Source: a virus. Taken from it: a DNA stretch of 64,000 nucleotides. How positions within the stretch are numbered: the first letter of the stretch is position 1; each line of letters starts with the position of its first letter. The translations under genes and the position numbers were made by a program. The notes beneath the pieces were generated by a model. It made no database searches. It was not told the DNA's origin and was given only the letters and a program-made list of their open reading frames with translations. This document shows, in pieces, positions 33,025 to 43,656 of the stretch. The stretch is taken from the IMG/VR virus record IMGVR_UViG_3300045988_170943, positions 96,001 through 160,000 of that record; one strand, 5' to 3'.

Positions 33025-34668
33025 ATGATGAGGTCATTCAGGAAGGCATGTCTTGCAGGAGCACTGACAATGGCCGCCTGTGGTGCTGCTGTTCCGGCTG
33101 TCGCTGCTGACAATGACGCTATTGTCCCGGATGCTTCACGGCAGGCCACTCTGGACATCCACAAGTTGAGTGGCACTGAGTCCACTACTCGTGCTGACGG
33201 TACGGCTCTCGCCCCTGAGGAGGTTGCCAAGTATGGTAAGCCCATGGGTGGGGTCGTCTTTGACGTGTACAAGGTGTCTGGTATTGACGTCTCGACCAAT
33301 GAGGGGCTGAAGGTCGCTGAGAAGATCCATGAGCGCAAGGTCACTGCTGCTGACGTGACGGCCGGGAAGATCTCGGTTGATGGTCAGGACTACGCTCTGG
33401 TCAAGGAGGCCCAGTCGGTGACAACTGGCGAGGACGGCTCTGGTCAGGGAACCTATGGGCTGGGTGTCTACGTCGTGGCCGAGAACCTGGCAAACTCCAC
33501 CCCGACCGTTGACGGTGCTGCTGTGGGTAAGGACAAGGTTACCCCGAGTGCCCCTTTCCTTGTCTCTCTGCCGATGACGAACACGAATGGTCGCTCTGAG
33601 TGGATGTATGACGTGGATGTCTACCCGAAGAACCAGGTTGACGAAATCACCAAGAGCGTCAGTGACGGCAAGGTCGGAACACAGAACCAGGACGGCTACC
33701 GGGTTGGCGAGAAGATCACCTACAGCCTGAACTCGACTGTCCTGGTGGGCGACAAGAATGGTGACGGCACGGTTGACGGGGCCGATTTCGGTGGCGTCTA
33801 TCAGATCACTGACACCCTGGACGCCAACCTGTCTTTTGAGAGCGAGACGGTCACTCTGACGAGTGCCGCTGGCGTGTCTGAGGTGCTGACCAAGGGCGCT
33901 GACTACACCGTGGCTAGTGCTGGCAACCAGGTGACTGTGTCCATGACTGAGCAGGGGCTCGGAAAGTTGACTAAGGTCTCTGGTGGCAGCGTGACCACTG
34001 ACCTTGTGGCCCGTGTCGCTACTATGCCAGCCAATGGTATTGTTGAGAACCAGGCCGCTTTCGTACCAAACAACACGTGGAAGACCAGCCACCCCGAGCC
34101 AGGCATCTCCTCTAACAAGGTCACCTCCAAGTATGGTGACATCGTGATCCACAAGACTAACAAGTATGGTGACAATCTTTCTGGTGCCGTGTTCAAGGTG
34201 TTCCGCGCAACCAATGGGACCACCTGTGATGTTGAGGCGCTTAAGGGTGACCCGGTTGCTACCTCCAGTCCGACTGATGCTGCTGGTCTGACCAAGTTGA
34301 GCGGACTCCAGTTGTCCAACTTCTATGACGGTGCCGATCAGGCCAACCTTCACTCCTACTGCCTGGTTGAGTCCACCGCCCCGGACGGGTACACGCTTCT
34401 GGCTAAGCCGGTCAAGTTCGACCTGACTGCTGCTGGTTCCGTGACTGACCTGTCTGCCGCACTGGGTGATGGTGTTGACGCCAACACTGAGGATCTGACC
34501 GGCCGCAACGTCCACATCACTAACGTCAAGAAGGGTGAGTTGCCTCTGACTGGTGCCCAGGGCGTGGCTCTGCTGGCAACCATCTCCATCATCCTCGCTG
34601 GTGTCGGTACTGGCCTGGTGATCTCCAGCCGCAAGAAGGCAAAGGCGGCCGAGGTCGCCACTGACTGA
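33025..34668 (+). CDS. sortase-dependent major pilin (backbone fimbrial subunit)
   Basis: Signal peptide; pilin motif DVDVYPKNQ; E-box YCLVESTAPDGY; CnaB-like segments; C-terminal LPLTG plus a hydrophobic helix plus SSRKKAK. Confidence 0.85.
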   Translation: MMRSFRKACLAGALTMAACGAAVPAVAADNDAIVPDASRQATLDIHKLSGTESTTRADGTALAPEEVAKYGKPMGGVVFDVYKVSGIDVSTNEGLKVAEKIHERKVTAADVTAGKISVDGQDYALVKEAQSVTTGEDGSGQGTYGLGVYVVAENLANSTPTVDGAAVGKDKVTPSAPFLVSLPMTNTNGRSEWMYDVDVYPKNQVDEITKSVSDGKVGTQNQDGYRVGEKITYSLNSTVLVGDKNGDGTVDGADFGGVYQITDTLDANLSFESETVTLTSAAGVSEVLTKGADYTVASAGNQVTVSMTEQGLGKLTKVSGGSVTTDLVARVATMPANGIVENQAAFVPNNTWKTSHPEPGISSNKVTSKYGDIVIHKTNKYGDNLSGAVFKVFRATNGTTCDVEALKGDPVATSSPTDAAGLTKLSGLQLSNFYDGADQANLHSYCLVESTAPDGYTLLAKPVKFDLTAAGSVTDLSAALGDGVDANTEDLTGRNVHITNVKKGELPLTGAQGVALLATISIILAGVGTGLVISSRKKAKAAEVATD

Positions 34669-34828
34669 CTAGCGTGAGCCCTCCTGTGGTGTTGGCAAAC
34701 GGTTCAGCCTGTGTCAAGAACACGACTCGGGCCTGTCTGCCAGCACCACAGGGGTGTAAGACGCTGAGAACCCATAAGAAGAACTTCAAGAACAACTGAC
34801 CCTTACTTTTCTGGGGAGAGAAAGAACC

Positions 34829-42697: not shown

Positions 42698-42708
42698 GGA
42701 ATCTCTAG

Positions 42709-43656
42709 GTGACAAGCACCAAAGATACTAGGCAGGCTGGGGCGAGAAGACAGCGAATGCTGATTGCCCTGGCCTGCCTAGTGTTCATTATCGCTGGCAC
42801 CGTACTGGGTTATGCGCCCGTAGCGACAGTGGTTAACAACCTGAGACAGCACCAGCAATCCCAGGAGTATAGCCAGCAGATCGCCAGACGCGAAAGCACC
42901 AGTGAAGGCAAGGCCAAAAACAAGGCCGCCATCCAGAAAGCCAGAGACTACAACAGCACCCTGAACGGGATCCCGATCCTTGACCCGTTCCTGGAAGATG
43001 TTGAGAACAGTTCCACCAAGTACCAGCAGTACCTTGGTGTCCTGGCTGACTCTGACGTGATGTCCAGGATCCGTGTCGAGTCCGCCGGGATAGATCTTCC
43101 TGTGCGACACGGAACAGATGACTCATCTATCGCAACCGGAGTAGGACACGTCTACGGGACCGCCCTTCCTGTTGGCGGAGAAGGCAACAGAACGGTTCTG
43201 ACAGCCCACACAGGAATGCAGTCAGCGACCCTCTTCGACCACCTCACTGACGTCAAGGTCGGAGACATCATGGTAGTGGAAACATACGGAGAGAAGTTAA
43301 CCTACAAGGTGACTGACATCCGCACCGTCCTACCATCTCAGTCTGACGCCTTAACCGCCGTACCCGGTAAAGACCTGCTGACACTGATGACCTGCACCCC
43401 ATATGGCGTGAACACGCACCGACTACTGGTGACAGGTGAACGTACCAGCAACGCCGAGGGCGCCATCACTGAGCCTGGGGTTCAGCACGAGTTGGCTGGC
43501 CTGTCATGGATGATGAAGGCGATGGGGACGCTGGCTGTGGCACTGATCCTGGCTGGCCTGATGGTGCCGATCGTGGCCCGGCCTCAGAGCCGGACAAAGC
43601 CTGGGAGGCGGCACGTAGCAAAGAGTGAGGTCACTAGTGCGCCCCGCTTGAAGTGA
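42709..43656 (+). CDS. srtC: class C (pilus-polymerising) sortase
   Basis: N-terminal TM helix; LTAHTG (His); TLMTCTPYGVNTHRLLVTGER (TLxTC active-site Cys and Arg); C-terminal hydrophobic anchor typical of class C sortases. GTG start. Confidence 0.85.
   Translation: MTSTKDTRQAGARRQRMLIALACLVFIIAGTVLGYAPVATVVNNLRQHQQSQEYSQQIARRESTSEGKAKNKAAIQKARDYNSTLNGIPILDPFLEDVENSSTKYQQYLGVLADSDVMSRIRVESAGIDLPVRHGTDDSSIATGVGHVYGTALPVGGEGNRTVLTAHTGMQSATLFDHLTDVKVGDIMVVETYGEKLTYKVTDIRTVLPSQSDALTAVPGKDLLTLMTCTPYGVNTHRLLVTGERTSNAEGAITEPGVQHELAGLSWMMKAMGTLAVALILAGLMVPIVARPQSRTKPGRRHVAKSEVTSAPRLK

Follow-up and report, generated by a model that had tools for sequence, protein, structure and literature searches.

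The window analyzed here is a 64,000-nucleotide stretch of the IMG/VR virus record IMGVR_UViG_3300045988_170943 (positions 96,001 to 160,000 of that record). At positions 33025 to 43656 it carries three genes that would together encode a sortase-dependent pilus, namely, a shaft pilin, a tip adhesin, and a class C sortase (Table 1). The coordinates and translations of the open reading frames (ORFs) agree with the three pilus genes and the motifs that a preliminary description of this DNA had reported. We favor, with reasonable rather than high confidence, the reading that the operon encodes a two-subunit fimbria of the Actinomyces type, assembled by a sortase; in this reading, the locus is intact, is under selection, and is carried as cargo by a giant element. 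Related loci from this element family fall into two lineages, one with a guanine-plus-cytosine (GC) content of 0.55 to 0.57, which includes the window, and one with a GC content of 0.44 to 0.50.

Table 1. Features of the pilus locus, with their synonymous divergence (dS) from the window; the between-lineage comparison is with L004 of the low-GC lineage
Feature	Position	Strand	Description and basis	dS between lineages	dS within the window's lineage
orf212	31121..31759	+	212 amino acids (aa); no Pfam match; the left edge of the shared block (~31.25 kb) lies inside	1.8	0.14-0.57
Radical SAM protein	31756..32637	+	293 aa; Pfam Radical_SAM (4.7e-11)	0.77	0.18-0.43
Terminator-like hairpin	32690..32747	+	Perfect 16-bp stem, 26-nucleotide loop, then ATTTTG; folding		
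Predicted shaft pilin	33025..34668	+	547 aa; SpaA/FimP/FimA type; ORF list, Pfam and PDB matches	0.47	0.28-0.36
Intercistronic stem-loop	34678..34757	+	Between pilin and tip genes; folding free energy (dG) -50.5, z score -6.3		
Predicted tip adhesin	34829..42697	+	2622 aa; Pfam and PDB matches, motif scan	0.29	0.30-0.32
Predicted class C sortase	42709..43656	+	315 aa; Pfam Sortase (2.3e-26), PDB match, motifs	0.94	0.42-0.45

The pilin start is preceded, 8 nucleotides (nt) upstream, by an AGGAG ribosome-binding site. The predicted protein begins with a signal peptide (residues 1 to 27) and harbors a VDVYPKN motif at residue 200, with Lys203 within YPKN (200-203), an E-box (YCLVESTAPDGY) at residues 445 to 456, and an LPLTG signal at residue 506, after which a hydrophobic stretch and then a basic tail extend to residue 547. 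Pfam recognized GramPos_pilinD1 (1.4e-17), SpaA, and Sgo0707_N2/pilinBB, and the best PDB matches were FimP (3UXF, 2e-25) and then FimA (3QDH) of Actinomyces oris, together with SpaA of Corynebacterium diphtheriae (3HR6, 2e-19). On its motifs and domains, the product would be a major (shaft) pilin of the SpaA/FimA type, and both polymerization into covalent fibers and intramolecular isopeptide bonds are predicted for this class.

The second gene product starts with a signal/anchor segment, continues with two BspA-type leucine-rich repeat (LRR) blocks flanking an Ig-like domain, then with ~930 aa without assignment, and ends in a SpaA/CnaB stalk and an LPLTG motif at residue 2583. Pfam matched LRR_5 (BspA type) in five stretches (5e-56), SpaA in seven stretches (2e-92), and the single Ig-like domain, while the PDB matches were BspA-like LRR proteins and CnaB domains. 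Five E-box-like motifs were found in the stalk domains, and the [YW]PKN motif is absent, as expected of a tip subunit. A homologue search with residues 900 to 1830 returned nothing, but it also missed the near-identical copy in ENA, so that this negative is a weak one. With an LPXTG signal, no pilin lysine, and an LRR head on a CnaB/SpaA stalk, the protein has the makeup of a tip adhesin and would presumably be located at the fiber tip.

The sortase gene starts 12 nt past the end of the tip gene. Its product harbors the catalytic motif TLMTC at residue 225, and the segments LTAHTG and RLLVTGER align with SrtC1 of A. oris. A lid (IPILDPFLED, at residue 92) aligns with PILDPWLE of 2XWG, and hydrophobic anchors lie at both ends of the protein (residues ~14 to 35 and ~273 to 293). 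The PDB matches comprised A. oris SrtC1 (2XWG, 8e-56), another class C sortase, and C. diphtheriae SrtA (5K9A, 2e-45). Fold and catalytic motif, lid, C-terminal anchor, and adjacency to the substrates, that is, all the features we tested, thus point to a class C (pilus-specific) sortase. Variability within the operon is highest in the C-terminal ~70 to 130 residues of the sortase, which comprise anchor and tail (43250 to 43656), and this holds inside the window's lineage, too; the nucleotide identity of this 3' part is 0.67 to 0.85, compared to ~0.9 elsewhere in the operon.

As a pilus, the system appears to be an ordinary member of the SpaA/FimA class, with a tip protein that is unusually large and carries LRRs. 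It is similar to the type 1 and type 2 fimbriae of A. oris (FimQ-FimP-SrtC1 and FimB/CafA-FimA-SrtC2) in having one shaft, one tip, and a single class C sortase, in the LPLTG of both substrates, in the YPKN motif and E-box of the shaft, and in a sortase that aligns with SrtC1 including the DPW/DPF lid and TLxTC. However, Actinomyces fimbrial loci run tip-shaft-sortase, whereas the order here is shaft-tip-sortase. Moreover, the tip of ~2,600 aa bears BspA-type LRR heads and is not of the FimQ/FimB type, the pilin is ~30 to 40% identical to those of named Actinomycetaceae, and the carrier is a ~390-kb element instead of a chromosome. With the SpaA-SpaB-SpaC/SrtA pili of C. diphtheriae, the system shares LPLTG, the WxxxVxVYPK pilin motif, the YxLxETxAPxGY E-box, and a class C sortase, but it has no basal SpaB-like minor pilin, and its tip harbors LRRs instead of a SpaC-type VWA domain.

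Two RNA hairpins accompany the operon. The terminator that the preliminary description had placed just upstream is real as a 16-bp hairpin (dG -37.3 kcal/mol, z score -8.7), which our consensus terminator scan missed because its loop is long. It is kept in L001 and L005, while a different hairpin stands in its place in L004 and L006, and it would close the upstream transcription unit. The gap of 160 nt between the pilin and tip genes folds into a second, long hairpin, which is preserved in all five loci despite changes on both arms (dG -48 to -58). We consider it a candidate attenuator or mRNA stability element that could set the pilin-to-tip ratio. A search of the window against Rfam matched no family.

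To place the locus, we searched IMG/VR with the pilin and found relatives on contigs of 374,688, 394,300, and 209,742 bp. On the 394,300-bp contig (IMGVR_UViG_3300008363_000089), window positions 970 to 1998 map to ~345 kb, the pilin maps to ~317 kb, and positions 62835 to 63941 map to ~282 kb, with order and spacing as expected. Gene by gene, the matches between the window and this contig or other relatives are 70 to 98% identical. Because both ends of the window map collinearly to this one contig, which runs ~49 kb past its left end and ~282 kb past its right end, the window is an internal piece of a ~390-kb element. Six independent assemblies are 375 to 398 kb long, three from IMG/VR (374,688, 394,300, and 398,101 bp) and three from ENA/Logan (389,964, 385,639, and 392,434 bp), and distant relatives of one core protein were found on contigs of 682 to 698 kb. 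As a unit of its own with more than 200 kb, the element lies in the size range of huge (jumbo) phages.

Ribosomal and other core cellular genes were absent from the window and from ~1 Mb of sequence from related loci. Neither flank of the operon is conserved core chromosome; both belong to the same element. In a protein search, pilins 93 to 94% identical to that of the window came from metagenome assemblies only, and its 90%-identity cluster counts 320 member sequences. An exact-sequence look-up of the pilin and sortase proteins found neither on record. The nearest named pilins are those of Varibaculum (~40% identical) and Schaalia, and 185,579 GTDB species genomes (one per species) contained no relative of the pilin or of the window's TnpB; hence, TnpB provides no host link via shared insertion sequences. 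Megablast of positions 30000 to 47000 against plasmid and phage collections gave no match (72,556 plasmids). The single-stranded DNA-binding protein (SSB) of the relatives is closest to those of Mycobacterium and Streptomyces, which, together with the affinities of the pilus proteins to Actinomyces, Varibaculum, and Schaalia, suggests a host among the Actinobacteria, most likely in the Actinomycetaceae. The habitat of this host is probably human associated and oral, and the sample numbers 7000000xxx and 33000062xx-33000087xx presumably denote Human Microbiome Project assemblies.

We then asked what kind of element carries the pilus. Since the two TnpB genes of the window are multi-copy, they served as handles to sample relatives, which yielded 41 further loci on ~20 IMG/VR contigs; additional sampling with an HNH gene gave only an already sampled region. 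The scan for hallmark genes covered ~200 larger proteins from the window and its relatives, some of them concatenated, and used Pfam and PHROGs; ~64% of one 210-kb relative was read, and most of its larger ORFs were included. The relatives encode a replication set (DnaE, DnaX, DnaB, and DnaQ/RecE), a CysRS-like protein, GyrA, class I NrdA and NrdB, anaerobic NrdD, an SNF2 helicase, a Dda-like helicase, RecG, SbcC/SbcCD, ClpB, and NAD synthetase, as well as thymidylate synthase (ThyA), DHFR, dCMP deaminase, dNMP kinase, a PurA/PurZ-like enzyme, and a CCA-adding enzyme. This nucleotide metabolism is T4-style. The tRNA arrays of the relatives total at least 40 genes, plus a transfer-messenger RNA (tmRNA). 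There are 16 to 20 tRNA genes per locus in L010, L012, L013, L021, L022, L029, L037, and L044, with at least 40 anticodons in total; the tmRNA occurs in contigs of the low-GC lineage and encodes the tag peptide VNFDDFALVA. The window itself contains no tRNA gene.

This gene content speaks for a phage. Al-Shayeb and colleagues reportedly described in 2020 huge phages (>200 kb) with expanded translation gene sets. The element resembles huge phages in size, tRNA complement, tmRNA, an aminoacyl-tRNA synthetase-like gene, ribonucleotide reductases, and many unknown ORFs; it differs from them in that no capsid or terminase gene was found among the scanned proteins. Circular jumbo phages of more than 300 kb have been obtained from the tongue dorsum (bioRxiv 10.1101/2020.07.06.186817). 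All family fragments that we fetched (30 to 398 kb, ~20 contigs) are entries of IMG/VR, a collection of viral contigs; several proteins of the window have PHROG matches; and two PHROG matches in relatives, to a "virion structural protein" (4e-23) and a "minor tail protein" (2e-24), are weak hints of a virion. Replisome proteins compared with phages by tblastn gave uninformative matches of 26 to 28% to DnaE/DnaB-bearing phages of Bacillus, Streptomyces, and Rhodococcus, and the RecG-like helicase matched mostly unannotated draft or contaminated records.

Several observations weigh against a phage, or against the pilus working as we propose. Capsid, terminase, portal, and tail sheath were not found among the ~200 larger proteins, and the "minor tail protein" match is, as read by eye, probably an NlpC/P60 and G5 cell wall hydrolase. 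The family also conserves a block of giant polytopic membrane, secreted, and wall-hydrolase proteins; such a block is atypical of virion modules and may serve in secretion or transfer. The putative host is assigned by protein similarity, and anchoring of the pilus leans on a presumed host enzyme, as a housekeeping sortase or a further protein with a sorting signal was not seen in the sampled parts.

The membrane block is located at L039 5731-21490, L041 1-13864, L051, and L052, with all genes on the same strand. It encodes polytopic proteins of 1372, 1059, and 752 aa, secreted proteins, an SSB, and a 733-aa lysozyme-plus-NlpC/P60-like protein, and it is retained in relatives that are only 39% identical, on the contigs of 682 to 698 kb. 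Pfam and PHROG scans of these proteins were blank, and a phmmer search against the PDB recognized the SSB alone. A 348-aa ORF of the block carries a GSTGGGK P-loop (read by eye). The AlphaFold model of the 698-aa secreted core protein of this block (mean predicted local distance difference test score, 78.7) shows two beta-hairpins with ~30 residues in each strand, and no fold in the PDB or BFVD matches it significantly; tblastn of this protein against phages and plasmids found nothing.

The carrier could be a giant plasmid-like extrachromosomal element of Actinobacteria, comparable to the Inocles, and the pilus an ordinary adhesion cargo of the plasmid type that is disseminated as the element passes from cell to cell. 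Besides the missing capsid, terminase, and portal, the bacterial-type replisome and repair set (DnaE, DnaX, DnaB, RecG, SbcCD, GyrA, and ClpB) and a zeta toxin in the window would fit such an element, and the membrane and secreted block with its bifunctional-looking wall hydrolase recalls Gram-positive transfer systems. Pilus cargo on plasmids also has precedents. A pilus cluster is carried by a plasmid of Lactococcus lactis NCDO712 (PMC5152845), and in our searches 34 PLSDB plasmids encoded a detectable relative of the window's pilin at 25 to 34% identity (SpaH/EbpB; Arthrobacter, Clostridium, and lactobacillus). As in the window, whole pilus clusters are there accessory cargo of a mobile replicon, but those carriers are conventional plasmids of 20 to 200 kb (one of ~1 Mb), whereas the present element has at least 40 tRNAs, a tmRNA, and phage-type nucleotide metabolism.

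Inocles are ~350-kb elements of oral Streptococcus with 24 to 32% GC that encode sortase A and single LPXTG proteins but no pilus (PMC12340149). The window's family shares with them the human oral setting, a size of ~350 to 395 kb, richness in insertion sequences, mostly unknown genes, and sortase/LPXTG proteins thought to alter host adhesion; it differs by a GC content of 44 to 57%, actinobacterial affinities, and a class C sortase pilus. The published description thus sets the element apart from Inocles, since these have 24 to 32% GC and a Streptococcus host.

Other results fit a plasmid-like carrier poorly. Relaxase, VirB4, VirD4, and partition genes were undetected in any scanned protein, precomputed Pfam annotation is blank across the membrane block, and neither the DNA nor the 698-aa core protein has a match in the 72,556 plasmids. 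The nucleotide enzymes, the tRNAs, the tmRNA, and the CCA-adding enzyme form a classic large-phage set, and the fragments come from a viral collection. Because the content is that of a huge phage, yet no virion hallmark was found among the scanned proteins and the membrane block resists annotation, we rate a huge phage as the likely carrier and a nonviral giant extrachromosomal element as a possible but clearly less probable one. If the latter applies, the contigs would represent an undescribed nonphage family of oral Actinobacteria elements of 375 to 398 kb, with more distant relatives of ~690 kb, and would be an actinobacterial counterpart of the Inocles. Tentatively, such elements would combine a near-complete tRNA set, a tmRNA, and their own replisome with exchangeable adhesin cassettes that remodel the host surface, and they would perhaps spread via the membrane block.

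Whatever its carrier, the pilus operon appears to have moved as a cassette within the family. Of the window's genes, L004 and L006 (low-GC lineage) have homologues of no more than five, namely, orf212, the radical SAM gene, and those for pilin, tip, and sortase. This is a shared block of ~12 kb whose edges lie, in a sliding identity profile, at ~31.25 and ~43.3 kb. Nucleotide identity climbs from 0.4 to 0.8 across orf212, stays at 0.85 to 0.96 through the operon, and is back at background by 43.5 kb, the right edge lying in the last third of the sortase gene. The Orf212 protein is 59 to 61% identical to those of L004 and L006 and 84 to 96% identical to those of L005 and L001, and the radical SAM gene, always directly upstream of the pilus operon, has 92 to 97% aa identity in all five loci; a PDB search with its product gave no informative match. 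In L004 and L006, the operon is a GC island (0.55, compared to 0.45 to 0.47 in the flanks). The comparison with related genomes that the preliminary description had called for thus finds the pilus block shared with a second lineage whose flanks differ, in line with its suggestion that the locus may be mobile-element cargo: the element is nonchromosomal, and the operon behaves as an exchangeable module.

The dS values fall from both edges of the block toward the tip gene (Table 1). Between lineages, dS of the tip gene does not exceed that within the window's lineage, and the tip gene is therefore no more diverged across lineages than inside one. Such a gradient is what homologous recombination centered on the adhesin would leave, and the ~12-kb block appears to have been swapped in this way between lineages that are ~8 to 10 GC points apart. 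The genes are under purifying selection, with ratios of nonsynonymous to synonymous divergence (dN/dS) of 0.07 to 0.14 for the pilin, 0.07 to 0.09 for the tip protein, and 0.05 to 0.10 for the radical SAM protein. The tip protein is 95 to 96% identical across the five loci, and none of the three pilus ORFs is disrupted in any of the five independent assemblies, which represent both lineages. Taken together, the GC island, the lineage-independent dS of the tip gene (~0.3), and a dN/dS of 0.07 to 0.14 indicate that the operon is a selected, exchanged cassette. No att-like direct repeats were found around the operon or the block, and a presence/absence query of the low-GC lineage with an L004 flank protein matched only the two contigs already in hand.

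A further pilin locus was seen on a 62-kb ENA contig with a GC content of 0.45 (L002, 1-16897). Its pilin is 54% identical to that of the window and lies near a 1441-aa LPLTG-anchored CLIPPER-repeat protein, a 2058-aa CLIPPER protein, thymidylate synthase, an NlpC/P60 protein, and dCMP deaminase; no sortase was found within 5 kb of the pilin. This locus suggests that surface-protein cargo is a recurring theme of the family.

The evidence for exchange also bears on whether the operon is a recently captured passenger without a role, e.g., host DNA heading to decay. The GC island in the low-GC lineage, the ordinary Actinomycetaceae fimbriae as closest cellular relatives, and the variable sortase 3' end would be compatible with this. 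However, three ORFs, including one gene of 7.9 kb, have remained intact in all five assemblies and both lineages, dN/dS of 0.07 to 0.14 at dS of ~0.3 to 0.47 indicates long retention under purifying selection, and the intercistronic hairpin has kept its fold although both arms have changed. Furthermore, as the nearest cellular pilin is ~40% identical, the capture was not recent. We therefore regard a functionless passenger as highly improbable and keep to a retained, selected operon.

Even less credible, and already close to refuted, is the suggestion that the window spans a junction between a chromosome with a native pilus and a prophage or island, with a boundary at 32.6 to 33.0 kb, or that the pilus is cargo of lysogenic conversion: the GC step from 0.52 to 0.566, the strong hairpin just upstream of the operon, and the onset of second-lineage identity near 31.25 kb could be read in this way, but both flanks and the operon are collinear on one contig that extends far beyond both window ends, the right flank is equally "dark" and has TnpB and DNA modification genes, the window shows no tRNA, no att-like repeats, no integrase among its larger ORFs (Pfam/PHROGs), and no flanking host core genes, the related loci (~1 Mb) are equally devoid of core cellular genes, and pilin and TnpB lack a relative in the GTDB species genomes. 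The discontinuity near the operon is real, but it lies at ~31.25 and ~43.3 kb and is a recombination edge between lineages of one family. The preliminary interpretation is borne out in part: mobile-element cargo is supported, but an island or prophage boundary and lysogenic conversion are not.

The flanks of the operon were described at first as a lower-GC, phage-like block of small unknown ORFs on the left and a Dam methyltransferase with more small ORFs on the right. GC content is indeed 0.52 in the left 31 kb, compared to 0.566 in the operon, but the step is modest and the right 20 kb (0.571) is like the operon. The label "phage-like" fits the whole window, on both sides, and the left block also contains named genes: a zeta toxin, two radical SAM genes, NadE, NMNAT/PRTase, and TnpB. 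The downstream methyltransferase was recovered as a D12 (Dam-type) Pfam match at 45759 to 46556, partial yet above threshold. The right flank has the same "dark" gene content, with one TnpB and DNA modification genes.

Some of these neighbors deserve mention. At 13086 to 16569, a radical SAM gene is followed by NAD synthase (NadE) and by a fused cytidylyltransferase-like/phosphoribosyltransferase protein, which looks like a module for NAD+ synthesis or salvage; relatives, too, encode an NAD synthetase and a nicotinate/nicotinamide phosphoribosyltransferase-like protein (L019). A 400-aa zeta-toxin/AAA_33 kinase is encoded at 9930 to 11132 (minus strand), and since this stretch is absent from the 394-kb relative (L009), it is variable cargo. 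On the plus strand at 51224 to 52893, a protein with a GmrSD_C-like nuclease domain adjoins a nucleoside 2-deoxyribosyltransferase-like protein; this pair, the D12 methyltransferase, and the PurA/PurZ-like enzyme of the relatives (phrog_1211, 1.5e-55) hint at DNA base modification. A 322-aa protein (4847 to 5815, plus strand) matches phrog_2433, of unknown function (1.6e-37), and the C-terminal ~90 residues of a 552-aa protein (57390 to 59048, plus strand) resemble part of the PHROG "minor head protein" family (6.7e-8).

The two TnpB (Cas12f1-like TNB) genes, at 25430 to 26962 (minus strand) and 55194 to 56768 (plus strand), are 26% identical to each other. The first is an insertion specific to the window, with no copy at that site in L001 or L005. 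Both families are multi-copy in relatives, with 18 and 23 IMG/VR loci at varying positions, and many contigs end in TnpB; neither family has a relative in the GTDB genomes. Just past the window's right end, the 394-kb contig (L007, 149-9823) has a gene cluster for a Ser/Thr protein kinase, a PP2C phosphatase, a protein with a VWA domain, and a ClpB/ClpC-like double AAA+ chaperone of 945 aa; a second ClpB-like gene was found in L018. Likely inteins occur at L016 1244-4009, L044 6998-8500, and L052 17700-19124: the family match to a 921-aa ORF for the small ribonucleotide reductase subunit is split into three stretches, the end of a DnaE-type polymerase ORF is a Hint-like segment (CLLTFDDG), and a distant relative has a gene with a PT-HINT domain.

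How the pilus would work can be outlined with the assembly model of A. oris and C. diphtheriae as a template (e.g., PMC11389406 and PMC11131087). We propose that the locus is accessory cargo of a ~375- to 398-kb extrachromosomal element, most likely a huge phage of a member of the Actinomycetaceae. In the carrying or infected cell, pilin and tip protein would be expressed and leave the cytoplasm via Sec, and their sorting signals would retain them in the membrane. There, the class C sortase encoded by the element, itself membrane bound, would cleave LPLT|G, join the tip threonine to the YPKN lysine (K203) of a pilin, and then polymerize pilins head to tail. The conserved intercistronic hairpin probably limits the tip protein to substoichiometric amounts. 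The fiber would be fixed to peptidoglycan by the host housekeeping sortase or possibly by the class C enzyme itself; we presume one of these because no second sortase was found nearby or in the sampled parts. With its BspA-type LRR head, the tip protein would confer a new specificity of adhesion or coaggregation on the carrying cell, and the element could benefit if its host is kept in a biofilm or brought to new hosts.

What is unusual here is the carrier, as sortase pili on plasmids are already known. In the literature, we found no report of a phage-borne class C sortase or sortase-dependent pilus operon, and a search of 50,697 deposited phage records with the pilin and the sortase matched nothing beyond 12 short fragments, all of them unannotated or draft. 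The draft sets of Listeria phage LM 4-14-1/4-11-1 and Enterococcus phage Efs 1-1-1 have such matches together with a bacterial-type RecG match.

The analysis flags a widespread family of elements that is catalogued yet for which we found no description in the literature. Sortase-assembled pili set where Gram-positive commensals and pathogens stick and are known from chromosomes, islands, and plasmids. If our reading is correct, giant phages or extrachromosomal elements can retool the adhesion of oral Actinomyces-like bacteria, and since the operon is swapped as a cassette between lineages, adhesin specificity could spread faster than chromosomes evolve.

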